Source: an uncultured Cryomorphaceae bacterium (GTDB taxonomy: Bacteria; Bacteroidota; Bacteroidia; Flavobacteriales; Schleiferiaceae). From it: 64,000 bases of DNA. How positions within the stretch are numbered: position 1 is the first letter of the stretch; every line of letters starts with the position of its first letter. The notes under the pieces were generated by a model, which searched no databases, was not told where the DNA came from, and worked only from the letters and a program-made list of their open reading frames with translations. A program made the translations under genes and the position numbers. The stretch is taken from contig CAJWZE010000001.1 of NCBI GenBank assembly GCA_913049845.1, forward strand, positions 19,765-83,764, read 5' to 3'. Of this stretch, positions 10,591-58,937 are shown piece after piece.

Positions 10591-10691
10591 GAGCTAAAGG
10601 TCACCAATTATCGGCATACATACTTAGAGGAAACGGACAATTCCCTGTCAATATTTCAACAGTATTCGATTCCGATTAAAAAAGTAAATTA

Positions 10692-13600
10692 GTGTCTTAT
10701 TATAATCACACGCTTGTGAAAAAATTTCTACTCCTATTCATGTCAGTTTTTGCTCTGGGAGCAAATGCACAATCTTACTGTTCGCCGACTTACACACTGG
10801 GTTGTACTTATGGCGATGACATCAACGATGTTTATATTGGAACTTTCTCTGATACAGCTACAGGCTGTTCGACAGGTAACTACTACGTGGCAACTTCTGA
10901 TACGATTTATATCCAACAGACGGCGCCTACCTCGGTTGAATTTACTTCAAACTATTCTACGCAGTATTTTGCTATTTGGGGTGATTGGAACAACGACGGT
11001 GATTGGGATGATGCTGGAGAGCATCTTTGGTCTTCTTCGACGAACCAGTGGAACGGTAATGTGGAATCAATCACAATTCCTTCTACTGTATCACTAGGCT
11101 CTTACCGCATGCGCATCCGTTCAAATTATTCTGCAGCTATTTCAGCTACAGAAAGCTGTTCAAGCATGTCTTACGGTGAGGTTCACGATTATACAGTGAC
11201 CGTTACTACACCGCCGGCATGTCCGGCACCGACCTTTGCAAGCATCACTGCTTCAGATTCATCGGCTACTCTTACTTGGAATTCGAACGATACAACGTTT
11301 GTTGTTGAGTACGGTACATCTGGTTTCGTGAACGGTCTCGGACTTCAAGTAACTGCGAGTGACACGTTTGCTACGATCACTGGTTTGAGCTCAAACACAG
11401 CCTACGATTTCTACATTAAAACAGATTGTACAGCGGATACAAACGGTTATAGCACAAACGTTGGACCGTTCTTCGTGAAGACGTTGTGTACTTCGGTAAG
11501 CACACCGCTCTATGAGAGCTTTGATACAGATTCAACGGGCGGATTCTCAAATCCAAATGCTCCTTCATGTTGGTACTATGCTGAAAATTCTGGTGCTGCT
11601 GGATACGGATACATAGCCGGTTCTTCTTGGAATTTGAGTCCATATTCAGGTACTCAGATGTACTACCTCTACAACAGCTATGATTCAGCGGTTGAGGCAT
11701 TGATTAGTCCTGCCATTATTGGTTTAGATAGTGGTACGAAGCAGATGGACATCTATATGGCGTGTACAGGCTGGTCTTCAGGCAATGATGTCATTGTGGG
11801 AACTGTTAGCAGCCCGACAGATTTGAGCAATTTCAATGCTATTGACACAATCAGTGTACCTAACGGCGCTTCTTGGAACATGTACACGGTGTACTTCGAT
11901 GCAAGTGCAGGGTACAACATGAGCGACCAACACATTGCCATCATTTCAACCTCGATAAACACCTACACGGCGGTATACTTTGATGAAATCATCATAAAGG
12001 ACGCACCACAATGTTTACCGCCTTCGGCATTAAGCATTGGTTCGCTAGGTGCAGATTCGGCTGAGGTCAATTTCACTGCAGCAGGTATTGCCACTTATCT
12101 AGAATACGGTCCTGTAGGGTTTGTACCGGATTTCCAACAGAGTACAGGAACGCTTGTTACTGCATCGTTGTCACCGCATTGGTTAACAGGTCTTGACACA
12201 AACACTTCATACGACGTATACGTATACCAAATGTGTGTGGATAGTACCGTAAGTCCAGCCTTTGGTCCTGCGACATTTAAGACGCTACAGTGTGCCCCGT
12301 CGTCAATGTGTACGTTTGACATTGAACTTACAGATACATGGGGCGATGGATGGAACGGTGCTCAAGTTGAAGTCTTGAATTCATCAGGCGGGGTAGAATA
12401 TACTCTAGGTGCAGGATTTACCACGGGCACTTCGTATACGGAAACTATCATGGTTTGTACAGGTGAAACATTTACCATTCAAGTTAGTGTTGCCGGTTCT
12501 TATCCTAGCGAGATCGGTTTAAATGTTCTTTCAAATAGTTCTGTTGTCGATTCTTACACGGCAACTTCAGCTACAACCGTTAGTACTCAAATGGCACAAT
12601 TCACAGCATCCTGTAACGCAGCTTGCCCACCACCAAAGAGCTTGACTTATGCAGCAGGAAAGAATGATGCGACCTTCACCTTTGATCAGAACGGAGGTTC
12701 TGCGACCTACGTTTACGAGTGGGGTCCAGTGGGATTTGCACAGTCAACAGGTATAATCTCTAATAACATTGATTCAACGACAAGTAACACTTTCTCCATC
12801 TTTGGTTTGAGCGCAGCCACTTGCTATGATGTATTCCTTATCGGAAATTGCGGTGCTAGCGGAGTGAGTGATACATTGGGGCCGTTGACCTTCTGTACTA
12901 ATCTTTGTGATACTACAGATTTATGTACTTGGACGATGAGTATGTATGATTCATGGGGCGATGGATGGAACGGTGCTGAAGTACAAGTATTGTATAACGG
13001 TGCCTTCGGTCAGTCCTTTACATTCTTAACAGGCGATTCGTCTATTGTAGATTTCCAGGTATGCAGTGGAACGCAGATTTCAGTATTCAACAGCGCTGCC
13101 GGATCCTATCCTTCTGAGGTAAGCTATGTGCTTTCGAATTCCTCTGGTACGCAAAGCACTTCTGTGAGTACGGGTAATTTTACAGTAGGTGTCCAAGATA
13201 CCTTGGTTGCGAATTGTGTCACAGTTTCTTGTCCAATGCCATCGAATTTGACGAATACGAACATTGGCGCTACAACTTCTGATATTTCATGGACAGGTGG
13301 TACAGGAACTTTCTTGTACCAATACCGTGCTCAAGGAACCACTACTGGTCCAATGCTCAGCGGTATATCAACTGCAACAACGGCTTCAATGATGGGTCTA
13401 ACGCCGTCTACCACGTACGACTTCTACGTGAAAGAAGCTTGTGCTCCAGGCGATACATCGATGACCATGTATCACGTGTTTACTACAGATTCCTGTGCAG
13501 CAATTACATTAGGTAATCCACAGTTCAACGTGGATAGCGTGAATGCTGCAGCTGCAGCACTGACCTTTAACTGGAACAGTGCAAACACCACTGGATTCAA

Positions 13601-14027
13601 TATTTCTTTTGGTGACGGTAACTTAGCGACGGGTGTTGGGGGTACAGTTTCACACTCGTACACTGCCAACGGTACATACTCCGTAACATTGACCGTATAC
13701 AGCGATTGTGACACTGTTAGCAAGACGTTTAATGTACAAGTTGGTACTATCGGTATCGAGGATAATGCTGGAATTACTGCCTTGATTATTTATCCCAATC
13801 CAACACAAGGGTTGGTGACCATCGATGGTGAGATTTCACACAACGCTGAGGTGAGTATTCGAATAATCAACTACTTGGGTCAGGAGATCCTAGCAGATGA
13901 ATTTGACCCTACTTCTTCAGTTCTAATGAAAACGTATGATTTGAGCGCGGCTGGGGCGGGAGCTTATCTCATCGAGGTTGCAACGAATCGAGACGTAGTA
14001 CAGAAATCCATTATTGTTCGTCACTAA
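10692..14027 (+). CDS. Giant T9SS-secreted mosaic protein (GEVED domain, four Fn3-like modules, two WGDGWNG modules, PKD-like domain, T9SS C-terminal sorting domain)
   Basis: GTG start (an alternative GTG lies a few codons downstream) and a signal peptide ending ANAQ. YGEVHDYTVTV is the GEVED signature. Four modules open with CP.P. A PKD-like FGDGN...YSVTLTVYSD segment is present. The C-terminus is IYPNPTQGLVTIDG...YLIEV...KSIIVRH. Confidence 0.75.
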   Translation: MSYYNHTLVKKFLLLFMSVFALGANAQSYCSPTYTLGCTYGDDINDVYIGTFSDTATGCSTGNYYVATSDTIYIQQTAPTSVEFTSNYSTQYFAIWGDWNNDGDWDDAGEHLWSSSTNQWNGNVESITIPSTVSLGSYRMRIRSNYSAAISATESCSSMSYGEVHDYTVTVTTPPACPAPTFASITASDSSATLTWNSNDTTFVVEYGTSGFVNGLGLQVTASDTFATITGLSSNTAYDFYIKTDCTADTNGYSTNVGPFFVKTLCTSVSTPLYESFDTDSTGGFSNPNAPSCWYYAENSGAAGYGYIAGSSWNLSPYSGTQMYYLYNSYDSAVEALISPAIIGLDSGTKQMDIYMACTGWSSGNDVIVGTVSSPTDLSNFNAIDTISVPNGASWNMYTVYFDASAGYNMSDQHIAIISTSINTYTAVYFDEIIIKDAPQCLPPSALSIGSLGADSAEVNFTAAGIATYLEYGPVGFVPDFQQSTGTLVTASLSPHWLTGLDTNTSYDVYVYQMCVDSTVSPAFGPATFKTLQCAPSSMCTFDIELTDTWGDGWNGAQVEVLNSSGGVEYTLGAGFTTGTSYTETIMVCTGETFTIQVSVAGSYPSEIGLNVLSNSSVVDSYTATSATTVSTQMAQFTASCNAACPPPKSLTYAAGKNDATFTFDQNGGSATYVYEWGPVGFAQSTGIISNNIDSTTSNTFSIFGLSAATCYDVFLIGNCGASGVSDTLGPLTFCTNLCDTTDLCTWTMSMYDSWGDGWNGAEVQVLYNGAFGQSFTFLTGDSSIVDFQVCSGTQISVFNSAAGSYPSEVSYVLSNSSGTQSTSVSTGNFTVGVQDTLVANCVTVSCPMPSNLTNTNIGATTSDISWTGGTGTFLYQYRAQGTTTGPMLSGISTATTASMMGLTPSTTYDFYVKEACAPGDTSMTMYHVFTTDSCAAITLGNPQFNVDSVNAAAAALTFNWNSANTTGFNISFGDGNLATGVGGTVSHSYTANGTYSVTLTVYSDCDTVSKTFNVQVGTIGIEDNAGITALIIYPNPTQGLVTIDGEISHNAEVSIRIINYLGQEILADEFDPTSSVLMKTYDLSAAGAGAYLIEVATNRDVVQKSIIVRH
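12290..13220 (+). repeat. Tandem in-frame duplication with a 615-nt (205-codon) period inside the GEVED-protein CDS
   Basis: An identical 26-mer catggggcgatggatggaacggtgct occurs at 12337-12362 and 12952-12977. The protein modules are C..C-T-[FW]....D-[TS]-WGDGWNGA-V-VL ... C-[TS]-G ... GSYPSE ... C. Confidence 0.7.
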
Positions 14028-14412
14028 ACCTCCAAGGCTAGTCCAAGCAAATGCAAGGGTTTCTCTGGGAATTCTTCCTGAATGACTTCTGTAGCATAAT
14101 GCAACGTCAATGCCATAATTGAGTTTGTGATAAGTGGAACTTATTGATGGGTAATTGATTAATACTGCGCTAATGCTGGCCTCGACTGTTGACAAAATCC
14201 TTTGTAGGTACTTACCCTAGAGAACGGAGCACCTAGGTTGCGCAGCTAGACACATTTGGCATACGCTTTGCTCTTGAGGGTGGAAAAGGTCTTTACCAAG
14301 GAGGTAATGTTTATGAAAGACGAGGCTTGTTAAAAACTTAGCATCATTGTAAAGTAGATATGCTGGGATTGAGGTAGTTTCGTTCTTATATAAGACAAAC
14401 TAATTTGGAGCT

Positions 14413-15300
14413 ATGAGTTCAATAGGAAACAAAGGGAGATTAGGATTGGTAATTGGCCTATTGGCTGTTGTTGTACTTGCATTGGGCGTATTGCTCTATT
14501 TACGCAGTGAAGAGAAGCATGCAATGGAGTTAGACAAGCAAGAATTGACCTTAGAACTGAGTGGTTTGAAGGAAGATTTGATTAGCCAGATTGGCGAGAA
14601 CGACAGTCTAAATTCATTTATTGAGACAGAGACAGCACGTTTAGGCTCGTTGATTGATAGCATTAACGCTGTAAATGTTGACAACAAAAAACAATTAACA
14701 AACTACCGTTACCGTTTGAGAAGCTTGAAGTATCAGAATGCGGAGTTGGTAGAACAATTGGATAGCATAAACGAAGCATATGCGGCGCTCAAGATCCGTG
14801 AGCAGATGATTGCAGACAGCTTGAATTTCGCGATAACTGCAAACCAGGCGCTTTCCGGTCAGAACAGTGTACTTTCAAATACAGTGGCCAAAGGAAAGCA
14901 GTTGGTTATTGCTGCATCCTCAGCTAAGGCGGCTCGTATTAGCAATAGTGGCAGGGAGCGCAAGACAATGCGTGCGAAGAAAACGGACCGTGTGAATGTT
15001 TGTATCACCATCGCTAAAAACCGTATTGCAGATTCAGGCGAGCGTACATTGTACGTGAAGCTCTTTGCACCAAACGGTAAGGAGGTTGACGCGCCTGAGA
15101 ACAACAAAGCAGTTGTTGGCGGCGTTAACAGCGGTTACAACGGTATTGCGAAAGTGAATTTCCAAGGAGAAGCAATGGACGTGTGTATTGCTGCGAACAG
15201 AGCGACAGATGCACCTGTTATATTAAAACCAGGAATCTACACTGCAGCCGTTATGACGGACTCGTACGTTTTGGGTACAGTAGCAGTAGAATTGAAATAA
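14413..15300 (+). CDS. Membrane-anchored coiled-coil protein with a beta-rich C-terminal domain (unknown function)
   Basis: N-terminal TM helix (LGLVIGLLAVVVLALGVLLYL), a heptad-rich middle region, and a C-terminal Ig-like-looking segment. The stop lies 4 nt before the OmpA-family gene. Confidence 0.55.
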   Translation: MSSIGNKGRLGLVIGLLAVVVLALGVLLYLRSEEKHAMELDKQELTLELSGLKEDLISQIGENDSLNSFIETETARLGSLIDSINAVNVDNKKQLTNYRYRLRSLKYQNAELVEQLDSINEAYAALKIREQMIADSLNFAITANQALSGQNSVLSNTVAKGKQLVIAASSAKAARISNSGRERKTMRAKKTDRVNVCITIAKNRIADSGERTLYVKLFAPNGKEVDAPENNKAVVGGVNSGYNGIAKVNFQGEAMDVCIAANRATDAPVILKPGIYTAAVMTDSYVLGTVAVELK

Positions 15301-15304
15301 TACC

Positions 15305-16267
15305 ATGAAGAAGCTATTCATTTTTGCACTTTTCGGTGCACTTACCACCTCTTGTGTGAGCACTAAGGTGCACAAAACCTTACAAGAGAAGTACGATATT
15401 CTTTCGAACGAAGCAGATCAGCTTCGTCAAAAGAGCGAAATGCGAGCGGCTGAGAACTCAGAACTCGAGCGTACACTAGGAGAGGTACGTCGTGATGTGA
15501 ATCAGCTTCAAGAGGATACAATTGTAAAGTTTGACGAGCTGCGCGCCTTGCAGACCAAATACGACCGTTTGTCCAAGCAGTACGATTACTTACTCGACAA
15601 CAACAGTACTTTGATTGCTGCAAGTGCTCGTGAAAACAAAGCTCTGATGGACGAGCTTAGTACGATACAAAGCCGTCTTCAAGCGAAAGAAGACAGTCTA
15701 AACACAGAGCGCCGTGCCTTGGAAAATGGGCAACGTCGAGTTTCGGAGCTTGAGGGCGTTATTCGTCGTCAAGACAGCACGGTAAATTATGTTCGTCAGA
15801 AAGTGGCGGATGCTTTGCTTGGATTCACGGGCAAAGGACTTACTGTCAACATGCGTGATGGTAAGGTCTACGTAAGCTTAGAGAACAGTCTACTCTTTGC
15901 ACCAGGATCTTGGAGTGTGGCAGCAAATGGACAAGTCGCTTTGGACAACCTTTCTAAAGTTCTTGCAGATAACGAGGAAATCAGCGTGCTTGTTGAGGGG
16001 CATACGGACGACGATCCTTACCGAGGACAGAGCCAAGTTAAGGACAACTGGGACCTCAGTGTGATGCGCGCTACGAATGTGGTAAAGATTTTGACTAAGA
16101 ATGTGGGTCTTGACCCAAAGCGAATTACAGCAGCCGGTCGCGGTGAGTACGTGCCTTTGGTTGAGAACAGTTCTTCGAGCAACAAAGCCATCAACCGTCG
16201 CACGGAGATTATCCTAACACCAGATTTAACAGAGCTTGCTAATTTACTAGATTCAGCGGGGGAGTAA
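15305..16267 (+). CDS. OmpA/MotB-family peptidoglycan-binding lipoprotein with a coiled-coil N-terminal half
   Basis: Lipobox LTTSC and a long coiled coil. The OmpA_C-like domain shows GHTDD...NW.LS..RA...V...L...G and NRRTEI. Confidence 0.8.
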   Translation: MKKLFIFALFGALTTSCVSTKVHKTLQEKYDILSNEADQLRQKSEMRAAENSELERTLGEVRRDVNQLQEDTIVKFDELRALQTKYDRLSKQYDYLLDNNSTLIAASARENKALMDELSTIQSRLQAKEDSLNTERRALENGQRRVSELEGVIRRQDSTVNYVRQKVADALLGFTGKGLTVNMRDGKVYVSLENSLLFAPGSWSVAANGQVALDNLSKVLADNEEISVLVEGHTDDDPYRGQSQVKDNWDLSVMRATNVVKILTKNVGLDPKRITAAGRGEYVPLVENSSSSNKAINRRTEIILTPDLTELANLLDSAGE

Positions 16268-16276
16268 TTGCTTTAT

Positions 16277-17629
16277 TTAGAATTGGTCACTGACCAATTC
16301 TTCAATTCTTTTCAATCCCACTATGTCAATTTCGTAGTGGGATTTTTCTATTTGGTGGTGAGCACTTACGTAGATGCGTTCAAATCCAAGTTTTTCAGCC
16401 TCGCGTATGCGCTGCTCTACCTTGGTCACCGGTCTAACTTCACCGGTCAATCCAACCTCTGCGGCAAAACACACCTTATCCGATATAGGCTTATCGTTAT
16501 TCGAGCTGAGAATGGCAGCAATCACGGCTAAATCTAAAGCAGGATCATCTACGCGTAGTCCACCAGTGATGTTTAAGAAGACGTCCTTTTGTCCCAATCG
16601 GAACCCACAACGCTTCTCTAAAACTGCCAATAGCATATTCAGTCGACGCGTGTCAAAACCCGTCGTAGATCGCTGAGGCGTCCCGTAGACTGCTGTCGAA
16701 CACAACGATTGGAGTTCCAATAGCATAGGACGAATACCCTCTAACAATACCGCTACAGCATTACCGCTGAGACCATCGTGTTGTTTGGTTAAAAGCAAAT
16801 CGCTCGGATTTGCTACCCCTTTAAGGCCTTCTTGTTCCATAGTATACAACCCAATCTCATGGGTAGATCCAAATCTGTTTTTATTTGCTCTTAAGATGCG
16901 GTACAATAGGTTGGGGTCTCCCTCAAACTGAAGGACAATGTCCACCATATGCTCTAATATCTTCGGTCCCGCGATACTTCCTTCTTTGTTGATATGACCA
17001 ATCAAGAGAACCGGGGTTCCTGTCTCCTTTGCGTAACGAATAAAACTTGCAGCACTCTCCCGGATTTGAGCTACTGAACCCGGTGTGCTTTCAACATGAG
17101 GCACGTGAAGCGTCTGTATAGAATCTATGACCACAAGGTGTGGTCGCATTTTTTTTAAATGGTTGAAAATGACCTCCGTTTTGGTCTCGTTCAAAAGGAA
17201 CAATTCACTTTCTGTGTGGCCAATTCTTTCCGCTCTAAGCTTGATTTGTGAAGGACTTTCTTCACCGCTTACATAGGCTACGGTTCCACTGAATTTAAGT
17301 GCCATCTGTAAGAGCAAGGTGCTCTTACCAATCCCGGGCTCGCCACCCAACAAAACCACCGAGCCTGGTACAATACCGCCTCCTAATACTCGTGAAAATT
17401 CGTCGTCGCGAATTGGATAACGTTGTACAGTGGAGTGCTCAACTTCATTAATTTTAAGCGGCCTAATTGAGGGATTATCCCCACTCCAAGCTCGTGGATC
17501 AGGCTTGCTTTTAGTCTGCGTTTCCTGCACGAGCGTGTTCCACTCTTTACATCCCTGGCATTGCCCCATCCATTTAGAATGTTCAGTACCACAGTTGTTG
17601 CAGATAAAGATGCTCTTACTTTTTGCCAT
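16277..17629 (-). CDS. radA: DNA repair protein RadA/Sms
   Basis: N-terminal zinc finger CNNCG...CQGCKEW, Walker A GEPGIGKST, the KNRFG motif and a Lon-like C-terminal domain. Confidence 0.92.
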   Translation of the reverse strand: MAKSKSIFICNNCGTEHSKWMGQCQGCKEWNTLVQETQTKSKPDPRAWSGDNPSIRPLKINEVEHSTVQRYPIRDDEFSRVLGGGIVPGSVVLLGGEPGIGKSTLLLQMALKFSGTVAYVSGEESPSQIKLRAERIGHTESELFLLNETKTEVIFNHLKKMRPHLVVIDSIQTLHVPHVESTPGSVAQIRESAASFIRYAKETGTPVLLIGHINKEGSIAGPKILEHMVDIVLQFEGDPNLLYRILRANKNRFGSTHEIGLYTMEQEGLKGVANPSDLLLTKQHDGLSGNAVAVLLEGIRPMLLELQSLCSTAVYGTPQRSTTGFDTRRLNMLLAVLEKRCGFRLGQKDVFLNITGGLRVDDPALDLAVIAAILSSNNDKPISDKVCFAAEVGLTGEVRPVTKVEQRIREAEKLGFERIYVSAHHQIEKSHYEIDIVGLKRIEELVSDQF

Positions 17630-17634
17630 GGAGA

Positions 17635-18609
17635 TTATTTCTTCCTAGTAAAATACAGAATTAGCACACCAATAGCACCTGTTGCAATGAACATTAAACT
17701 ATTGCCGCTATGGATGATGGTAGCATATGCGGTTCCTAGTTCTGGCGAATAACCAACGACTGTGAGTGCCTTCGATACGAGATAGTGGTAGGCGCCAATA
17801 CCACCAGGCACAGGAACAACGTACCCTAAACCGGCTGCAACACTGACATAAAATGCTTCAGAAAGCCCTAGGGCTTCTAATCCTGGCACGATTTTAAAAC
17901 CTACAAATATCGTAGCTATGTAGCACATCCAAATACCTACGCTATATGCCCAGAACAAGAATTTGTTCTCGACATTTTGAACGCTTTTTAAGCCCTCAAC
18001 AAGCCCTTGAATGAAGCTGATTATTTTCTGAGCAAAACCCCATTGCGACCACATTTTTCGAGTGCTCCAAAGACCAATTAGTAAAAGTATAGTGACGCCA
18101 ATTAAAGCACTGACTAACAATGGCGATAGCGAAGGAAAACTGGCACCGCTTTGAATTAGGAAGATGGATAGTTGTGTTGCTTGCGTAATGATAGTAATCA
18201 AAAAGACAAAACCAAACATAAGGATGTCTACTACCCGCTCAAGTAAGACAGTTCCGAAGAGCTTATCAATAGGGATATCGTCGGTGCGGTTGATTGCAGT
18301 GCATCGAGCTACTTCACCAACTCTTGGTGTAACAAGATTGACTAGGTAAGAAAAGGCTACCGCTGCGATGGCATTGAGTGAACTCACATTGTAGCCGAGG
18401 GTCCCCAAGAGCTGCACCCATCGGATGCCGCGAATGATAATGGCAATTAATCCAATTCCAATTGCGATAAATAATCCGAACCCATCAACGGACTGAATGT
18501 TCTTCGATAATTCTTCAGGGTTGGTATTTTGAAATGTAAAATAGAGTAACAATCCGCCAATGCTCAAGAAGAGCATGTATTGCAACACCTTTTTTACATT
18601 TTCCGTCAC
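17635..18609 (-). CDS. UPF0104 / lysylphosphatidylglycerol-synthase-TM-like (flippase-like) membrane protein
   Basis: About 8 predicted TM helices and 324 aa. The position next to panD is common in Bacteroidota. The family assignment comes from overall pattern only. Confidence 0.55.
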   Translation of the reverse strand: MTENVKKVLQYMLFLSIGGLLLYFTFQNTNPEELSKNIQSVDGFGLFIAIGIGLIAIIIRGIRWVQLLGTLGYNVSSLNAIAAVAFSYLVNLVTPRVGEVARCTAINRTDDIPIDKLFGTVLLERVVDILMFGFVFLITIITQATQLSIFLIQSGASFPSLSPLLVSALIGVTILLLIGLWSTRKMWSQWGFAQKIISFIQGLVEGLKSVQNVENKFLFWAYSVGIWMCYIATIFVGFKIVPGLEALGLSEAFYVSVAAGLGYVVPVPGGIGAYHYLVSKALTVVGYSPELGTAYATIIHSGNSLMFIATGAIGVLILYFTRKK

Positions 18610-18959
18610 TATTTCAAGAGATTAGTTGATTCGTCTGGGAATACAATCCGAGGTTTGTGTGTCTTTGCTTCTTCTGGGGTCATTTGCGCATAAGCGATAA
18701 TGATAATCACATCGCCTTTTTGAACACGACGAGCGGCAGGTCCATTTAAAACAACACTTCCCGTGCCGCTGCCTCCTGAAATGGTGTAGGTGTCGAAACG
18801 CTCCCCATTATTGACGTTGACGATGTAAACACGTTCACCAGGAACAATACCAACCGCAGCCATTAAATCATAATCTAAAGTGATAGAACCCACGTAATCA
18901 AGGTCCGCTCCTGTGACCTTAACGCGATGAATTTTACTCTTTACAACCTCTATTTGCAT
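18609..18959 (-). CDS. panD: Aspartate 1-decarboxylase
   Basis: [29 protein letters not shown] includes the Gly-Ser self-cleavage site. 116 aa. Confidence 0.92.
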
Positions 18960-18973
18960 GGCGCAAAAGTAGA

Positions 18974-19819
18974 TTAAAAAAGAGGAAGGTTATCGATAAG
19001 GCGAACTTTTCCGCACATAACAGCCGCAAAGACTCTTGTCGGAACATTTAATTTGAACCTATCTACCGGAATCAACGTATTTGCCGCACTGAATTCGAGG
19101 TATTCCACCTCGAGGTAATCGACACTATTGATTTTTTTAATTAGCGCTCTTTGGGCAGTTTTTGGTGAGGTAGCCCCAAAATCTGTATCCTGAATCCATC
19201 GCGAGATAATATGGTAAATTTCTTTGGCTGCTCTTCGCTGGGCGGATGACAAACGGAGGTTTCGGCTGCTCATGGCGAGGCCGTCGTCTTCGCGTAGTGT
19301 AGCACAAGGCACGATTTCTACGTGCCAATTTTCCTCATTAACAACGTGCTTGATTATAGCGAGCTGTTGATAGTCTTTTTCACCAAAAAATGCGCGGTGT
19401 GGCTCGATGATTTCAAAGAATCGTGTTACAACAGTTGCCATTCCGTCGAAGTGACCAGGTCGTCCAGCTCCTTCCATGAATTTGCTCAACGAACCAAAAT
19501 CAAAGCTTCTTGATTTCAGCCTATGTGGATAAAGATCTTTTTGAGAGGGCAGGTACACAACTACTTCTCCGGTATCACGCAAGAGGCGTAAATCTTTCTC
19601 AAGGGTCGAGGGGTACTTGTCCAAGTCCTCCGCATTGTTGAATTGTGTTGGATTCACGTATATACTCACCAGGGTATAGTCGTCCATTGAAAGACTGCAC
19701 TTTACTAAACTCAGGTGGCCTTTGTGAAGTGCACCCATCGTAGGCACAAATCCAAGGGTTTGCTCCCCAATGCTAACTCGCCACTCGTTTAATTCTAAAA
19801 TATTTCTTAAAACGGTCAT
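18974..19819 (-). CDS. panC: Pantoate--beta-alanine ligase
   Basis: [10 protein letters not shown] (HIGH-like) motif and the SSRN motif. 281 aa. Confidence 0.92.
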
Positions 19820-19878
19820 TTTGGGCTGTAAAAGGGCTCAAAACTAGGCTATTCTTAGGAAAAAGCGTCAAAAAAAGG

Positions 19879-19886
19879 TATCTTTG
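19879..19886 (+). promoter_or_regulatory. Candidate Bacteroidota sigmaA -7 box (TAnnTTTG)
   Basis: tatctttg lies 29 nt upstream of the ATG at 19915, in the divergent panC/glgA-like intergenic region. Confidence 0.35.
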
Positions 19887-19914
19887 CCCCCTAGTTTAAA
19901 AACATCTAATCCGT

Positions 19915-20733
19915 ATGGATAGCAAGAGAGTATTGTTTATCTCACAGGAAATTCACCCATACCTACCTGAGAACAAGATTTCAAGCACAACTTTAGCGCT
20001 AGCTAAGAAAACGAATAATAGTGGCCATCAGGTACGCGTTTTTATGCCTCGTTTTGGGGTGATTAATGAACGTCGTCACCAGTTGCACGAGGTTATCCGC
20101 TTGAGCGGTATGAATGTAGTGATTAATGACATGGACATGCCGTTGATCATTAAGGTTGCTTCGGTTCCTGGAGCACGCATGCAAGTCTATTTCATCGATA
20201 ACGAGGAATATTTCAAGCGCAAGTTTACCTACACGGACGCTGACGGTAAATACTTTGAGGATAACGATGAACGTACTCTGTTCTTCTCTAAAGGGGCTAT
20301 TGATACTGTTGAAAAACTAGGGTGGAAGCCAGATGTTATACATGTTCATGGCTGGATGTCGGCCTTAGTACCATTGTATTTAAAGCTCTTCCAAAGTGAG
20401 AATCATATTTTTAAGGACGCCAAAGTAATTTTCTCTGCTTACGACAATGGCTTTGAGGGAACTTTAGGTCCAAATTTGAAAGCGGGGATGGAGTTTGATG
20501 AAATTGATCCTTCTTTGACTGATAGTTTGGAAAAACCCACGAGTGTTGACCTTCAAAAATTAGCCGCCAAATATTCGGATATACTTATCCTTGGAGAGGA
20601 AAATACGGCTGAGGTTGCAGAATATGCAAAATCTATCGGTGTCGAGGTAGTTGATGGTTCGTCATTCATAGATGAGCCAGAAGAAGCCATTAAGGTGTAC
20701 GAATCTCTCCTTGTTGAAAGCGATGCCGAATAA
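19915..20733 (+). CDS. Short glycogen/starch-synthase-like protein (N-terminal Glyco_transf_5-type half only)
   Basis: VLFISQEIHPY...GHQVRVFMPRFG...HVHGWMSAL matches the GlgA N-domain pattern. The ORF is only 272 aa and has no C-terminal GT-B half. Confidence 0.7.
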   Translation: MDSKRVLFISQEIHPYLPENKISSTTLALAKKTNNSGHQVRVFMPRFGVINERRHQLHEVIRLSGMNVVINDMDMPLIIKVASVPGARMQVYFIDNEEYFKRKFTYTDADGKYFEDNDERTLFFSKGAIDTVEKLGWKPDVIHVHGWMSALVPLYLKLFQSENHIFKDAKVIFSAYDNGFEGTLGPNLKAGMEFDEIDPSLTDSLEKPTSVDLQKLAAKYSDILILGEENTAEVAEYAKSIGVEVVDGSSFIDEPEEAIKVYESLLVESDAE

Positions 20734-54092: not shown

Positions 54093-54273
54093 GGTCTGGG
54101 GCTTAAATTCAAACGCAAGGTAGTTCCTACATTTAAGCTACCGGCTGATATATGTTTGGTAAAATTACATACCAATAAGTAAAGGTTGGTGCTAAAGGAA
54201 TGCTAGTTTTTACCCCAACTATTCAATGAGTAAAAGGCGCTCAAATTATTATCTAGTATCTATACATCTGCAT

Positions 54274-54281
54274 TATATTTG
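54274..54281 (+). promoter_or_regulatory. Candidate -7 box (TAnnTTTG) for the tRNA gene
   Basis: tatatttg ends 7 nt before tRNA position 1. Confidence 0.45.
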
Positions 54282-54288
54282 TCCCCTT

Positions 54289-54362
54289 GGGCTCATAGCT
54301 CAGTTGGTTAGAGCACCTGACTCATAATCAGGTGGTCGCAGGTTCGAGCCCTGCTGGGCCCA
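54289..54362 (+). tRNA. tRNA with anticodon CAT: elongator tRNA-Met, or tRNA-Ile2 if lysidine-modified
   Basis: Hand-folded cloverleaf: acceptor GGGCTCA/TGGGCCC, D-arm GCTC-AGTTGGTTA-GAGC, anticodon arm CCTGA-CTCATAA-TCAGG (CAT at 54323-54325), variable loop TGGTC, T-arm GCAGG-TTCGAGC-CCTGC, discriminator A. CCA is not encoded. Position 1:72 is paired, so it is not an initiator. Confidence 0.88.
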
Positions 54363-54366
54363 CTTT

Positions 54367-54403
54367 AAAGCACTTCCATTTGGAGGTGCTTTTTATTTTA
54401 ATT
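54367..54403 (+). repeat. Left direct repeat (DR-L) of the islet; also the terminator hairpin of the tRNA
   Basis: aaagcacttccatttggaggtgctttttattttaatt has a 9-bp stem agcacttcc/ggaggtgct, a 4-nt loop and a T-run. It matches 58239-58276. Confidence 0.8.
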
Positions 54404-54567
54404 GGGTCCTTTAATTACTGCCTTCACCAATAATGGATAATCCAAGAGACGGATTAGTATTAAAAGAAAGGTAATCAATCTGAATTTCCATTCTGTCACT
54501 TTTCCTGTCACTAAAGAATGCTACTGTGCTGATTTTGTTACCTTAGAAATAAATCAAGAAATAAAAG

Positions 54568-56334
54568 ATGATCTCACCTGAGCGAAAGAATATTGAAGAG
54601 ATTTTAGGAGGAACAAGAGTCAAATATACCGTTCCAAATTATCAGCGAGCCTATAATTGGGGTATGACAGAGCTTCAAGAATTGATGGATGATTTGATTC
54701 AATTGAAAAGCGATCAAAGTCAAAAGCTTTTCTTAGGTAATTTGATTTTTGATGTTTCTAATGATTCAGAATATCAAATAGTTGATGGACAACAGAGACT
54801 AACAAGTATATCAATACTGTTTATAGCAATTCGTGAACATGCTAAGAGGATTAATGAAATTGATATAGCCGGTGAAATTCAAGACAATATTAGTATCTAC
54901 TCTTCAACAAGAGGTACGAATCAGATTAAGTTTAAAGTTGCGGAGAACATAAGGGAGATCTATGAGTTCATGGCAGACCCAAAATGGGACTTATCTTTTC
55001 CTTCAGAGCTAAATGGAAAAGGAGTAAAAAGACAAGTGAACAAGGTCAGACCCATCTTTAATTTCCTCTATTCCTCTTTAGAGACATTCAACTCAAATGA
55101 CCTTAAAGGATTCATAGAATCGCTTTGGGATGCGTATGTTGTGGTTATCAAAGTTGAAAATACAGAAGATGTATTTGCTGTATTTGAAAGAACCAATGCT
55201 AGGGGTCTAGATTTAAATATTGGTGATCTACTCAAGAATTATATCTTCTCTTATCAGAAAAGTGGATTTGAAGAGAAATGGGAAGCAATAGTAGACAATG
55301 CTAACGGTCAGCTTCCTCGCATGCTAAAGTATTTTTGGGTTTCTCGCAAGGGGTACATTCAACAATCCAAATTGTACAGAAGTCTAAAGGAATATTGCCG
55401 AGAACTTGAGACGATTGAATCAAACGAAGAAGGGATCACAATTTTTGTAAATGATCTGCTTTTATTTTCTCAATATTATTCTGCTGTTACAGACCAGTCC
55501 AAAGAAAAACTTAGAGATTGGCTATCTGATTTTGGACTAAATAGCATAGTGAATAATGAAGATTACTTTGATAATGTAGTTAGAGTTTTCCAAGCGCTGA
55601 AGTTATTTAGGGTTTCTCAACCAATTCCATTAATTTTTTCCTTTTTTGTCAATTACAAGGTGCACTGCAAGTCACCAGATAAATTGGTTAAAGCATTGAT
55701 TGCCATAGAAAAATATCACTTTGTTAATAATGTAATATCAGGTAGGGTAGGTAACGAAGTTGAAAGATTTTATTCAGATTTGGCCCCTAAAGTTTTTGAT
55801 TCAGACAAACCGATCGGTCAAAACACATCGTCATTTCTGGACAAACTCAGAAAGAAAAAGGCAAACAAGGAAGAATTTACCTCCAATTTTATTGATGTAA
55901 TCACCTATGGACAGAAAAACTTTGCTTTGGTTAATTATGTCTTTGACCGAATAAATAATTATCAGACAAAGGGGTCTCAATATGTCTCAATATTTCGTCC
56001 TGATGTCAACTATAAGAAAAGAAACTACAACATTGAACATATTTTAGCTCAGAGCAATAAGACCAATTATAACGAGAAAGACCAGGAACGATTTAATGAA
56101 ATAGGGAACTTAATTGTCATAAGTAGACATACAAATTCCTCTCTTGGAGACTTACCACCATCTGAAAAAGTATTGAAGATAGAATCCGATAAAAAGCATT
56201 GGGGTAATCTTCGTTATATGGATGAATTCTTGAATGATTATCGTGATGACTTTTCAAATTGGGATTTGCAGACCATAAGGAAGAGGTCAATTAACATTGC
56301 TAACGATTCATATCAACGATATTGGAACTTCTAA
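54568..56334 (+). CDS. DUF262-DUF1524 protein (GmrSD-like type IV, modification-dependent, restriction / anti-phage nuclease family)
   Basis: N-terminal DUF262 motifs: VPNYQRAYNW, DGQQRLTS (nt 54784-54798) and FERTNARGLDLNIGDLLKN. C-terminal DUF1524/His-Me-finger-like motifs: NIEHILAQS, IGNL and NSSLG. Confidence 0.8.
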   Translation: MISPERKNIEEILGGTRVKYTVPNYQRAYNWGMTELQELMDDLIQLKSDQSQKLFLGNLIFDVSNDSEYQIVDGQQRLTSISILFIAIREHAKRINEIDIAGEIQDNISIYSSTRGTNQIKFKVAENIREIYEFMADPKWDLSFPSELNGKGVKRQVNKVRPIFNFLYSSLETFNSNDLKGFIESLWDAYVVVIKVENTEDVFAVFERTNARGLDLNIGDLLKNYIFSYQKSGFEEKWEAIVDNANGQLPRMLKYFWVSRKGYIQQSKLYRSLKEYCRELETIESNEEGITIFVNDLLLFSQYYSAVTDQSKEKLRDWLSDFGLNSIVNNEDYFDNVVRVFQALKLFRVSQPIPLIFSFFVNYKVHCKSPDKLVKALIAIEKYHFVNNVISGRVGNEVERFYSDLAPKVFDSDKPIGQNTSSFLDKLRKKKANKEEFTSNFIDVITYGQKNFALVNYVFDRINNYQTKGSQYVSIFRPDVNYKKRNYNIEHILAQSNKTNYNEKDQERFNEIGNLIVISRHTNSSLGDLPPSEKVLKIESDKKHWGNLRYMDEFLNDYRDDFSNWDLQTIRKRSINIANDSYQRYWNF

Positions 56335-56444
56335 AAAGAGTCTAGGGATACAATTTGAGTCTTTGGTTGATATTAGTGTATCACGACAGAACAACAATGC
56401 CATAAGAAAGGACAGGGCGGCAACCCCGAATGGCCGCCAGAAAG

Positions 56445-56540
56445 GCTCTTTCAGTTTTTTTTGGTCAATAACAATACGCGGTTTCACTCACTTCGGTGGG
56501 GGCTTTTCCTATATTTGATTGAATCAATAGAACCAAAACA
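56445..56540 (+). repeat. Intergenic module copy 1 (related to 57325-57431)
   Basis: Shared order: gctct - T-run - ttgNtcaata - tcacYcacttcggtg - ggNtttt - tatat - aaccaaaaaca. It contains the -7 box tatatttg at 56510-56517. Confidence 0.55.
56510..56517 (+). promoter_or_regulatory. Candidate -7 box (TAnnTTTG) for the LRR lipoprotein gene
   Basis: tatatttg lies 24 nt upstream of the ATG at 56541. It is the same octamer as in front of the tRNA. Confidence 0.4.
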
Positions 56541-57299
56541 ATGAAGAAACTACTTTTTATTTTACCACTTCTTCTAATTATTAGTTGTACTGATTCTAAC
56601 AATCCGCACAGAGCCAGATTCAACAGCAGCGGTTGCCTTGAATGTGATAATTACACTGCTGGCGAAACCTTTATTTTAGACGGCTTTGAATATATAGTAG
56701 CTGATAGAACAATGTTAGCTACGGCAATAGCAAATGATGAAGATTTAACCAAGTATTGCACTTCATTAATTAATGATATGTCATCCTTATTCAAGGACCT
56801 AATAACCTACAATGAGGATATAAGTACTTGGGATGTGAGTAATGTAACCAATATGGAAGGTATGTTCTGGTCGGCTTCCTCCTTCAATCAAGATATTGGT
56901 AGTTGGGATGTAAGTAATGTCGATAACATGAACAGTATGTTTAAATCAGCTGAATCATTTAATCAGAATTTAAGTGAATGGAATGTCGAAAAAGTCGTTG
57001 ATATGAGCGGAATGTTTTTATCTGCTAAAGCATTTGATAGTCCTATAGGTGGTTGGGATGTTGGCTCTGTCAATAATATGAGCAGTATGTTTCAAGGAGC
57101 AATAACCTTCAATCAGTATATAGGTGATTGGGATGTGAGCAGAGTAGGTAATATGTTAAATATGTTCTACGGAGCGACGATTTTTAATCAAGATTTAAGT
57201 GGTTGGTGTGTGCCAAACTTATTTGTTGCACCGTTTGGTTTTTCGAAATACAGTTTATTGACTCTTTCAAATCATCCAGTTTGGGGCACTTGCCCTTAG
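56541..57299 (+). CDS. DUF285 / BspA-type leucine-rich-repeat surface lipoprotein
   Basis: Lipobox LLIISC. About six 25-aa repeats of the form F-N-Q-D-I-x-x-W-D-V-S-x-V-x-x-M-x-x-M-F. Confidence 0.75.
   Translation: MKKLLFILPLLLIISCTDSNNPHRARFNSSGCLECDNYTAGETFILDGFEYIVADRTMLATAIANDEDLTKYCTSLINDMSSLFKDLITYNEDISTWDVSNVTNMEGMFWSASSFNQDIGSWDVSNVDNMNSMFKSAESFNQNLSEWNVEKVVDMSGMFLSAKAFDSPIGGWDVGSVNNMSSMFQGAITFNQYIGDWDVSRVGNMLNMFYGATIFNQDLSGWCVPNLFVAPFGFSKYSLLTLSNHPVWGTCP
56766..57212 (+). repeat. Approximately 75-nt (25-codon) tandem coding repeats of the DUF285/LRR type
   Basis: Recurrent ...tgggatgt(g/a)agt...atg...atgtt... units. The protein-level repeat is clear and the DNA-level copies have diverged. 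Confidence 0.6.
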
Positions 57300-57324
57300 G
57301 GAGGGTAAGCAATTAGTATACTTC

Positions 57325-57431
57325 GCTCTGCTTTCTTTTTTTCTTGCTCAATATGTCACCTTTAGTGTCACCCACTTCGGTGAAGGTTTTGATATATATA
57401 TGGTTAAACTAAAAATCAAACCAAAAAAACA
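57325..57431 (+). repeat. Intergenic module copy 2 (related to 56445-56540)
   Basis: See copy 1. The 15-nt core tcacccacttcggtg (57368-57382) matches tcactcacttcggtg (56484-56498) with one mismatch. Confidence 0.55.
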
Positions 57432-57590
57432 GATTATTTCTGTTAGCCGCCGCTGCTGTAGCCCTATTATTACTTATGTAGATGTCTATGTGTTATTGTC
57501 GTTTGTTTAATAATGAGTTTATTGGGGTCAAAATGAAACAAAATATCATCGTATAAATGCTAGATTCCTAATCATTTAAAACATTATGTA

Positions 57591-58217
57591 ATGAAAAAAT
57601 CAACATTTATTTTTCTATTCGCATTTGGTTTTGGGTTGACTTCGTACGCCCAGGACTATGCGAAAAATTCCTTCGGGATAAACACATCAGGACCCTTCCA
57701 AGGTTTTGGCTTGCAATGGAATCATCAGCTTACTGAGAAAACAACCTTTACGGCTTATTATGGCCAGGCTGTTGCACAGGAATGGACTAGTGACAATCCT
57801 TACTACCCGAATGATGATCAATCCGGACAGGGATATTCGGGAGAAACCTTTCAGAATAGCTCTTGGACTAGCTTTATCTTAAACTTCCGTCCATTAGATA
57901 ATTTCCAGGCATTTAGAGTTGCTTCGGGATTAGGTGTAGGTCGATTAGGAGGAACACTTAAAGGGTTGACAGATGAGAACACCTATTTTATTAATGGTGC
58001 TGGACCTTTTGCCTACATGGGTATAGGTTATGGATTAAAACCTGTTAAAGGATTCCAATGGGGGATTGATATTGGTTGGATACGCGGACCAGGCTTTACG
58101 ACGCAAACTGACGGAGTTGATGCAGCAGCAGCAGCGGCTAGTTTGGAGCTTACCGCCCGTAATCATGAACTTCCATTCTTTCCGAATGCTCAAATAACAT
58201 TTGCTTGGGGATTCTAA
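57591..58217 (+). CDS. Small outer-membrane beta-barrel protein (porin-family-like), function unknown
   Basis: Signal peptide ending SYAQ. The composition is Gly/aromatic-rich and alternating. The C-terminus ITFAWGF ends in Phe (OMP beta-signal). Confidence 0.5.
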   Translation: MKKSTFIFLFAFGFGLTSYAQDYAKNSFGINTSGPFQGFGLQWNHQLTEKTTFTAYYGQAVAQEWTSDNPYYPNDDQSGQGYSGETFQNSSWTSFILNFRPLDNFQAFRVASGLGVGRLGGTLKGLTDENTYFINGAGPFAYMGIGYGLKPVKGFQWGIDIGWIRGPGFTTQTDGVDAAAAAASLELTARNHELPFFPNAQITFAWGF

Positions 58218-58238
58218 TTGAATCATCATTTTTTGAAA

Positions 58239-58276
58239 AAAGCACTTCCATTTGGAGGTGCTTTTTTATTTCAATT
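58239..58276 (+). repeat. Right direct repeat (DR-R) of the islet; a bidirectional terminator shared by the barrel gene and rluA
   Basis: aaagcacttccatttggaggtgcttttttatttcaatt is preceded by an A-run and followed by a T-run. Its last nucleotides overlap the rluA stop codon. Confidence 0.8.
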
Positions 58277-58937
58277 AGGAATTCCAAATATCTCTGTTCG
58301 GTGATGGTGCTTCAAAAACTAAGGGGCTTCCGTTGATGGCACTAGGAAGTTCGATTGATCTTGCGTGAAGCGCGATTTGCAGCGGTTGATATTCAGCTTC
58401 CGATTTGTATTTCTCGTCGCCAATTATAGGGCACCCGATTTGGCTTAGCTGAGCTCTGATTTGATGAAATCGTCCCGTTTTGGGTTTTATTTCAAGCAAG
58501 TGACCCTTGCTAGATGATGATAAGATTCTATAGCTCAGTTCAGCTTTTTTGGCACCTTTCACCTTGGTGTCCGTGACCAATGCTTTTTTGTTCTTTTGAT
58601 CTGTTAATAGGTAGTGGGTGAGCACACCCTTTTCTTCTCTAGGCACTTTGTTAGTAATAGCCCAATACGTTTTTTGAATTTTCCGCTGCTCAAACCACTT
58701 GTTCAAGGTTTTCAAAGTTTCTCTCTTTTTCGCGAAGAGAACAACTCCACTAGTTACCCGGTCTAGTCGATGAACGACCCCGATATAGGGATTATTAATT
58801 TTTTGCCTTAGGTATTCTCGGTAATTTGATTCGAGATTATTGTGTTCGAAGGGGTTGTCCTCAGTGATTACTCCTGCAGGTTTTTCGACCACTAACAGTT
58901 GGTTTGATTCAAATAAAACACCATCTTTTTTTACCAT
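58275..58937 (-). CDS. RluA family pseudouridine synthase (short form, no S4 domain)
   Basis: HRLDRVTSG catalytic motif and a GRFHQIRAQL motif. Confidence 0.85.
   Translation of the reverse strand: MVKKDGVLFESNQLLVVEKPAGVITEDNPFEHNNLESNYREYLRQKINNPYIGVVHRLDRVTSGVVLFAKKRETLKTLNKWFEQRKIQKTYWAITNKVPREEKGVLTHYLLTDQKNKKALVTDTKVKGAKKAELSYRILSSSSKGHLLEIKPKTGRFHQIRAQLSQIGCPIIGDEKYKSEAEYQPLQIALHARSIELPSAINGSPLVFEAPSPNRDIWNS

Follow-up and report, generated by a model that had tools for sequence, protein, structure and literature searches.

The window analysed here is a 64,000-nt stretch of contig CAJWZE010000001.1 from an uncultured Cryomorphaceae bacterium, and the locus in question lies in it between a tRNA(CAT) gene and a gene of the rluA family. 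Two copies of a terminator-like hairpin, which we call T1, frame genes for a GmrSD-family nuclease, a DUF285 lipoprotein and a small outer-membrane barrel. How did these genes come to lie between two copies of a terminator, in a region where Pfam finds no recombinase? The preliminary description of the locus took the segment for one islet that was inserted as a unit. We consider it probable that the segment is instead a decayed tandem array, left by successive tyrosine-integrase islands that inserted at the tRNA site and lost their integrases.

The proposed history starts from the tRNA(CAT)-T1 junction beside rluA, which would be the attachment site for small tyrosine-integrase islands (~6-11 kb) of marine Schleiferiaceae/Cryomorphaceae. 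The attachment site of such an island (attP) would contain, in order, the integrase start, a right arm with two TGTCAC motifs, most or all of the tRNA, T1 and a left arm of ~150 nt with two or three TGTCAC motifs. Integration at the 3' end of the tRNA would rebuild the tRNA and set the T1 and left arm of the element behind it, and each integration would shift the previous T1, and all that lies beyond it, to the right. At least three elements (E1 to E3) would have arrived in turn in this genome, and illegitimate deletions would have stripped the array of all integrases, right arms and internal partial tRNA/T1 copies. E1 would remain as T1, left arm, GmrSD gene and a DUF5681 stump (54367-56454), E2 as an arm scrap with the DUF285 gene (~56481-57300) and E3 as an arm scrap (57348-57502). 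The rightmost, older unit (barrel gene, T1 and rluA) would most simply be the remnant of a still earlier element together with the original chromosomal T1. The two T1 copies would then be the outermost terminator copies, attL-side and attB-side, of the decayed array. We infer both the order of arrivals and the succession of tRNA 3'-end integrations followed by illegitimate deletions.

The array would now be fixed, since its right end has neither a partial tRNA, nor a right arm, nor the probable crossover segment, and it would be immobile by site-specific recombination. For the same reason mobilisation in trans, which had been suggested earlier, is unlikely. A rare RecA-type deletion between the 28-bp copies is possible and would remove the barrel gene too. 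The genes still at work would encode a type IV-like GmrSD nuclease, a lipoprotein of the cell surface and a small barrel of the outer membrane, each gene being followed by a hairpin terminator.

Borders of the segment and the two T1 copies

The left border is the tRNA(CAT) gene (54289-54363, + strand; ARAGORN, and Rfam tRNA at 74.7 bits), the putative chromosomal half of the attachment site. ARAGORN called it Met; its anticodon stem is not of the initiator type, and it resembles elongator Met and Ile2 (lysidine) tRNAs. The discriminator base is at 54362, and four spacer bases separate it from the left T1 copy (54367-54403, +), the predicted tRNA terminator, which in the array reading would be the element-derived part of attL. 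The right T1 copy (58239-58276, +) overlaps the rluA stop codon and would be the chromosomal, attB-side copy; both positions agree with those in the preliminary description. The 28-mer AAAGCACTTCCATTTGGAGGTGCTTTTT is exact at 54367-54394 and 58239-58266 on the + strand, and the full 37/38-nt copies differ by the one T insertion or deletion and the one substitution already described. Each folds as a strong hairpin that ends in a T-run (-15.9 and -19.8 kcal/mol; z -3.4 and -4.6), in line with the terminator hairpin described earlier. T1 folds better on the + strand, with a G.U pair, than on the - strand, with a C.A mismatch, so the hairpin appears to be built for rightward transcripts. Runs of A and T flank the right copy, which lies between the barrel gene and rluA and is predicted to terminate transcripts from both directions. 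An Rfam scan of 53.9-58.6 kb matched the tRNA alone; T1 and the arm behind it matched no known RNA family.

The foreign DNA begins right behind T1, immediately 3' of the tRNA gene. Upstream of the tRNA, the native tatatttg..gggctcatagc is common to the window and to relatives with an empty site. The repeat in the window consists of the terminator only, with no part of the tRNA, and no tRNA bases precede the right copy. Flanking repeats that include part of the tRNA gene were seen in four related loci (L032, L060, L040 and L021; L numbers designate the loci compared). The right border of the hotspot is the core gene for an rluA-family pseudouridine synthase (58275-58937, - strand; Pfam PseudoU_synth_2 1.2e-35), which is syntenic in every relative examined.

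The AT-rich DNA is confined to 54404-57502. The GC content of the GmrSD gene (0.341) and of the DUF285 gene (0.360) is 3-3.7 standard deviations lower than that of 42 long open reading frames of the window (0.44 +/- 0.027). The barrel gene, at 0.429, is in the normal range for the window, with a low GC at third codon positions (GC3, 0.34). The earlier claim of an AT-rich segment thus holds for 54404-57502 and fails for the barrel gene, and the right T1 repeat does not bound the AT-rich DNA.

Sister elements with tyrosine integrases

Related loci indicate which type of element used this site. An integrase family of 360-370 aa, here F1, scored above the Pfam cut-off for Phage_integrase and also matched PHROG integrases. 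In L046, L040, L032, L034, L028, L024 and L060, a whole or 5'-truncated tRNA copy plus T1 is found 70-90 nt to the right of the start of the F1 gene. L060 is an intact 6.5-kb element that consists of a tRNA copy, T1, an arm with three TGTCAC motifs, a GmrSD gene, a DUF5681 gene, three further genes, an inward-facing integrase (PF00589 32.8 bits; phrog_1 4e-18), two TGTCAC motifs and a partial tRNA. Its second gene matches PF18932 (DUF5681) and, in PHROGs, a family of unknown function only; the three other cargo genes have no Pfam or PHROG function, and none of the cargo genes besides GmrSD has a PADLOC match. Genes for terminase (terS), capsid, primase and AlpA were not detected in L060 by Pfam and PHROGs.

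L032 is a complete sister element of 5.9 kb with a tRNA, T1, the conserved arm, four cargo genes, an integrase, a partial tRNA (nt 13-75, with a compensated T-stem variant) and a different hairpin. Its attL carries T1 and its attR carries the other hairpin, so T1 behind an occupied tRNA is element-derived. The crossover probably falls within GGGCCCACTTTAA, between T-stem and hairpin, as judged from this single attL/attR pair. L040 (10769 nt) has an exact 123-nt terminal overlap, and L046 (10778 nt), from another sample, is a rotation of the 10.65-kb circle of L040 at 99.97% identity. The joint reads integrase, TGTCAC twice, partial tRNA, T1 and left arm; whether L040/L046 represent an excised circle or a tandem copy, the layout shows an attP that includes T1 in both cases. 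The cargo of this candidate element comprises a 1751-aa protein, a DUF4379/DUF559-like nuclease, a DUF5681-like small protein and the integrase. Across the sister elements we detected DUF4379/DUF559-like nucleases, HNH, MazG-like, Schlafen AlbA_2/DUF5929, DUF2779 and GIY-YIG-like genes.

The att-like character proposed earlier for the ends is therefore supported, the site being used by tyrosine-integrase elements with T1 in attP. The suggested loss of the mobility function is supported as well: the intact sister elements L060, L032 and L040/L046 have an integrase and the window copy has none. Pfam detected no recombinase in the islet or in the 64-kb window, and tblastn over the whole window with two F1 integrases of sister elements found no integrase relic (best E 0.028, outside the region), in agreement with the earlier report that no integrase or recombinase is present.

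The spaced repeat TGTCAC-N6-TGTCAC occurred 11 times in 283 kb of related loci, where 0.017 occurrences would be expected by chance, always on the tRNA strand and at +126 to +148 or -153 from T1. These repeats are putative arm-type integrase binding sites. The window has two such pairs only (54494 and 57354), both on the + strand and with the same 12-nt period.

T1 in metagenomes and empty sites

If T1 were a genome-wide repeated terminator, or a member of a repetitive extragenic palindromic (REP)-like family, two copies could stand together by chance. The exact 22-nt core of T1, used to scan metagenomes, was found in 41 copies on 39 contigs from several lineages and beside two different tRNAs, which would suit such a family. 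Its contexts do not: 39 of the 41 copies lie 4-7 nt 3' of a tRNA or tRNA fragment and the other two behind the barrel gene, with no other context. T1 is thus not a dispersed repeat. Apart from the two copies, the 28-mer was absent from the window at up to three mismatches, and it was absent from 100 shuffles. Neither the window nor the 41 metagenomic copies showed the many copies at unrelated intergenic sites that characterise REP elements or miniature inverted-repeat transposable elements (MITEs). This explanation, which the preliminary description had itself named as a possible objection, has a negligible probability.

Seven loci of more distant relatives (L023, L026, L036, L049, L050, L056 and L057) have the empty arrangement, tRNA-T1-rluA with a single T1. 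In L050, L057 and L058, T1 is followed by TTTTTATTTCAAT and then the rluA end, which matches the DNA 3' of the right T1 copy of the window. The ancestral order tRNA > terminator < rluA, as proposed earlier, is thereby supported, with a junction that matches the right copy.

The tRNA associated with T1 is mostly Met(CAT), and Ala(GGC) in five loci. In these five, the identical T1 28-mer plus the ~150-nt left arm stands behind tRNA-Ala(GGC) (T1 positions in T1-forward orientation: L029 1515, L033 833, L038 2448, L047 3909, L053 903), and integrase was seen nearby as C-terminal scraps only. This suggests that one and the same element arm came to be combined with another tRNA as target.

Contigs that encode proteins identical to those of the window come from the marine metagenome-assembled genome GCA_003545085.1 (named Cryomorphaceae), TARA and JGI, and all carry the islet; the nearest RluA relatives are 77% identical. 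Among relatives, the interval from the HAD hydrolase gene and the tRNA to rluA is hypervariable: L009 has other genes and a 70% barrel orthologue, L044 and L021 have katG and neighbouring genes, and in the species of P0032 an alginate-use locus adjoins rluA.

The GmrSD segment

Behind the left T1 copy lies the conserved element left arm (54395-54567, +; candidate P' arm), which is 89% identical to L051, L025 and L060 and has TGTCAC-N6-TGTCAC at 54494-54511. The GmrSD-family gene (DUF262 + DUF1524; 54568-56334, +), the putative E1 cargo, is full length and encodes 588 aa. The protein matched Pfam GmrSD_N (1.5e-29) and GmrSD_C (1.5e-11), both above the curated cut-offs, as well as PADLOC HEC-06 (5.8e-64) and the Orf5 model, and has a DGQQR motif in its N-terminal domain (IVDGQQRLTS). 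By domains and motif, the gene is predicted to encode a type IV restriction nuclease. It has the two-domain architecture of the GmrSD/BrxU-type DUF262-DUF1524 type IV restriction enzymes, with DUF1524 as a C-terminal His-Me finger domain, the likeness being one of sequence membership only.

The intact element L060 encodes P0121, to which the GmrSD protein is 93% identical, and window 54288-56455 aligns with L060 1221-3410 (blastn, 88.3% identity over 2193 nt). This homology stops ~60 nt into the second (DUF5681) gene of L060, of which the window retains a frameshifted N-terminal stump (56397-56454, +; blastn, pairwise alignment and tblastn), the likely E1 deletion breakpoint. Because the alignment ends in the second gene, the GmrSD segment corresponds to the left third of such an element; by this comparison ~4.3 kb of an L060-like element, integrase and attR included, is gone from the window.

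These data bear on the preliminary proposal of a single 3.9-kb islet of three genes, inserted as a unit with duplication of the terminator as an att-like site, its recombinase being lost or acting in trans. That proposal accounts for the 37/38-nt direct repeats at both ends, for the existence of empty tRNA-T1-rluA sites and for the absence of a recombinase between the repeats. However, the GmrSD part is the truncated left end of an L060-like element, which is longer and has an integrase, the composition is split (GC 0.34-0.36 vs 0.43), and intact elements have a partial tRNA and a right arm that are absent from the right end here.

The DUF285 cassette and arm scraps

To the right of the stump, a hairpin with a UUCG loop and T-run, here H2 (56481-56507, +), lies upstream of the DUF285 gene. 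Over 24 nt (56484-56507) it agrees completely with the arms of L038, L047 and L053, and it would be the distal left-arm scrap of E2. The gene for the DUF285 repeat lipoprotein (56541-57299, +; Pfam DUF285 7.6e-63) would be the E2 cargo; the protein had no PADLOC match, and in PHROGs it matched only a family of unknown function. In L041 and L045, DUF285 genes come after T1 and the arm, and DUF285-type cargo lies behind T1 in L041, L043 and L045. By blastn, window 56487-56528 and 57503-58217 are contiguous in L009, where the same H2 hairpin directly precedes the barrel promoter. Relative to L009, the DUF285 cassette (~56529-57502) was therefore inserted separately, between H2 and the barrel promoter, a further result that contradicts a single islet.

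Past the DUF285 gene, a second TGTCAC-N6-TGTCAC pair (57354-57371) and a hairpin, H2', form a scrap (57348-57390, +) with 88.6% identity to the distal left arm of L038-type elements, a putative left-arm scrap of E3. We also considered the 57354 pair as a right-arm remnant and rejected this, the flanks being of the left-arm type.

The DUF285 gene has five tandem 75-nt (25-aa) repeat units of 62-71% identity (window 56819-57230).

The barrel gene and the age of the repeat

The last unit before the right T1 copy is the barrel promoter region with the 208-aa outer-membrane beta-barrel gene (57503-58217; gene 57591-58217, +), which we regard as an older resident cassette. The protein models as a small outer-membrane beta-barrel (predicted local distance difference test score, pLDDT, 78; best PDB matches CarO, OmpA and OmpW) and has no match in PADLOC or PHROGs. 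The gene content first reported for the segment is thus upheld, by Pfam for the GmrSD and DUF285 genes and by the structure model for the barrel. The barrel gene, however, does not belong to the AT-rich defence DNA: its GC content is normal for the window and it is not a gene for defence.

The age of the repeat is indicated by L070, which reads HAD hydrolase, Por_Secre_tail gene, tRNA, T1, 18 nt, barrel promoter and gene, T1 (one loop change), TTTTTTATTTCAATT and other DNA. L070 has neither the GmrSD nor the DUF285 gene, i.e. it lacks 54404-57502, and its flanks are 83% identical to the window. The barrel region (window 57503-58282) is 86.5% identical to L070 at the nucleotide level, and the protein is 95% identical in amino acids to P0241 on L070 and 70% to the L009 protein. 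L039 and L048 have the same T1-barrel-T1 unit, and the barrel-T1 junction is common to the window, L039, L048 and L070. The repeat therefore predates the AT-rich DNA, the 3.1 kb at 54404-57502 being a later arrival. With L070, L039 and L048 having nothing but the barrel unit between their T1 copies, a single insertion that duplicated T1 is already contradicted by L070, and we regard the single-islet explanation as very improbable.

In the reading that we prefer, the barrel gene would be the last survivor of a still older element. This view draws on three observations: the left T1 copy of L070 is followed by ~12 nt that resemble the start of the element arm (GTTTGGTTGAGC vs GTTTAGTTAAGC), the right T1 copy has the empty-site junction, and L039, with the order integrase-partial tRNA-T1-barrel-T1, is the intermediate that the older-element view predicts. 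We also considered the barrel as a plain core gene; the low GC3, the divergent L009 allele, its position upstream of the tRNA elsewhere and the arm scar of L070 weaken this possibility.

Another explanation accepts the array and derives the right T1 copy from a local duplication, gene conversion or deletion, the copy being kept as the convergent terminator of barrel gene and rluA. Its A6 and T6 flanks give a 14-bp predicted two-way terminator and no tRNA fragment stands in front of it. In clade A the order is barrel, own terminator, tRNA, T1, so that a deletion between two AAAGC motifs would fuse the barrel gene to T1, and the L009 barrel gene ends in an unrelated hairpin. On the other hand, the 13 nt past the right T1 copy and the rluA end match the empty-site junctions, which fits an original chromosomal copy, and the ~12 nt of arm-like DNA after the left T1 copy of L070 suggests an element scar before the barrel. 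We consider a non-att origin of the right copy unlikely.

Integron-like exchange of cassettes, targeted to the hairpins T1 or H2, could also be imagined to give T1-barrel-T1 and H2-DUF285-H2'. Similar hairpins bracket each of the three genes, T1 in L039 and L048 stands at the exact H2 position of L009 with the same sequence following, and H2-type hairpins come after cargo genes in L041, L042 and L059. Yet neither an integron IntI nor another recombinase was found nearby by Pfam and tblastn. The hairpins, with G+C stem and T-run, resemble ordinary intrinsic terminators, and two of them, H2 and H2', are explained as left-arm parts of the element, as in L038. The interval from H2' to the barrel contains 110 nt of unrelated DNA, and the T1/H2 swap is accounted for by a deletion through the GCTTTTTT tails common to both. 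Such exchange has only a very remote chance of being the cause.

A bolder idea is that T1 works as an attachment-site module that keeps the rebuilt tRNA terminated, that the T1-arm unit was re-coupled from Met(CAT) to Ala(GGC), and that exchanges at the level of hairpins shuffle single-gene cassettes (T1-barrel-T1, H2-DUF285-H2') with no integrase nearby. We hold this to be rather unlikely; if true, re-coupling of T1 plus left arm would be a modular way to switch integration targets.

Several points weigh against the decayed array. The DNA compared comes from metagenome contigs only, at 77-88% identity, and we found no strain of the same species with or without the islet to compare, every contig with an identical rluA carrying it. 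No intact element with the barrel gene as cargo was found. The array does not explain why the barrel gene is upstream of the tRNA in L035, L030, L054 and L080. A 56%-identical barrel homologue lies in an unrelated, tRNA-free chromosomal context of another lineage (L081-L084, 8001-8621), so the protein family is not confined to the hotspot. The right T1 copy has no partial tRNA before it, and its att origin is argued from the downstream junction only. T1 and the L060 integrase had no match among the viral contigs of IMG/VR, an absence from one collection that is weak evidence.

Where the barrel gene lies upstream of the tRNA (L035 2975-3813, L030, L054, and L080 8001-8624, other clade), it has its own terminator there. 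It adjoins a divergent 282-aa gene, which in L009 lies downstream of the barrel.

Relation to known elements

Islands of Prochlorococcus, including tycheposons, consist of integrase elements at tRNAs; partial tRNAs lie between tandem integrations, and each newer element displaces the older ones inward (bioRxiv 10.1101/2020.12.28.424599). They hold degenerate remnants and fragmented integrases (bioRxiv 10.1101/2020.12.28.424599). By layout, with integrase lineages not compared, the window segment is closest to this tycheposon-style tandem accretion and decay. Common to both are small cargo elements with an inward-facing tyrosine recombinase at one end, tRNA integration in marine plankton, successive integrations at the same tRNA with partial tRNAs between them, and degenerate remnants; these layouts are seen in L060, L032, L046 and L039, and the remnants in the window. 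In contrast to tycheposons, the host here belongs to the Bacteroidota and not to the cyanobacteria, L060 gave no sign of a replication or hallmark module (primase/helicase), the tRNA terminator hairpin and a conserved TGTCAC-repeat arm form part of attP, and the cargo is mostly nuclease-type defence genes and surface proteins.

A survey of tRNA-gene (tDNA) islands in Klebsiella lists the same hallmarks, includes islands that have repeats but lack an integrase and gives the asymmetric 3' end as a known sublocation (bioRxiv 10.1101/2020.11.02.365908). The segment resembles classical tDNA islands and integrative mobilisable elements in its position at the tRNA 3' end, its low GC, its direct repeats and its integrase-bearing relatives; it differs in that its surviving repeat is a terminator without tRNA sequence and its internal att copies appear to be deleted. 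Among the features of a tRNA-targeting integrase island, the window shows the tRNA-adjacent position, homology to L060 and an empty site with low GC; it has neither an integrase of its own nor repeats with a tRNA part.

The virion-encapsidated integrative mobilizable elements (VEIMEs) are integrase-bearing elements of 5-12 kb from marine bacterioplankton, including Flavobacteria, with defence-type cargo and a circular or concatemeric form (PMC9618062). The elements described here are like them in size, marine habitat, integrase, defence-type cargo and circular or concatemeric form. They are unlike phage satellites of the VEIME type or of the phage-inducible chromosomal island (PICI) type in that no packaging genes were detected in L060 and no IMG/VR viral contig matched. 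The literature searched yielded nothing relevant on such elements or islands in Schleiferiaceae and no description of the F1 integrase family.

Repeated island insertion at a tRNA site with loss of integrases is a well-known route to variable defence regions. The array suggests that an uncultured marine flavobacterial lineage builds a hypervariable tRNA-side region as in Prochlorococcus, by repeated integrase insertions and subsequent decay. Depending on the relative, this one site is occupied by a gene for a GmrSD nuclease, by HNH, Schlafen-like or MazG genes, by genes for surface proteins, by katG or by an alginate-use locus. The attachment-site layout proposed here (tRNA copy, terminator hairpin, TGTCAC-repeat arms) is concrete and testable. 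For annotation, the case is a warning: where terminator-like direct repeats enclose an islet without integrase, they may mark the outermost ends of a decayed array and not those of one element. Worth following are the attP with its terminator, the occurrence of the same T1 and arm behind tRNA-Ala and the variety of cargo at a single site.

Other observations at the hotspot

In the window, just 196 nt (54093-54288) separate the HAD hydrolase gene from the tRNA. In L009, L044, L051 and L070 a Por_Secre_tail gene of 549-577 aa lies in that interval, with two further genes in L009/L044; the left side of the tRNA is thus variable too. Two independent assemblies, L006 and L007 (TARA scaffold_355 and CEWG01407983.1), start exactly at the first base of the tRNA (window 54289). 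Such starts point to a repeat-induced break, as expected if the tRNA-T1-arm unit is repeated in the population with several left-hand contexts.

A different type of island occupies the same tRNA in L021 (full tRNA 894-969, repeat 3750-3803), L037 and L052. In the L021 type only the final 23 nt of the tRNA are repeated; there is no integrase, and three secreted proteins or lipoproteins make up the cargo. The end next to the tRNA has another hairpin, AGCACTTACG..CGTAGGTGCT, which L032 has at its right end as well.

In L070 an alginate-use locus (GntR, SusC/SusD, PKD and alginate lyases; 10680-20627) lies ~500 nt past the right T1 copy, and in L015 the alginate locus (10711-20693) abuts rluA. The hotspot may hold one alginate locus of >20 kb, the L070 and L015 stretches being non-overlapping.

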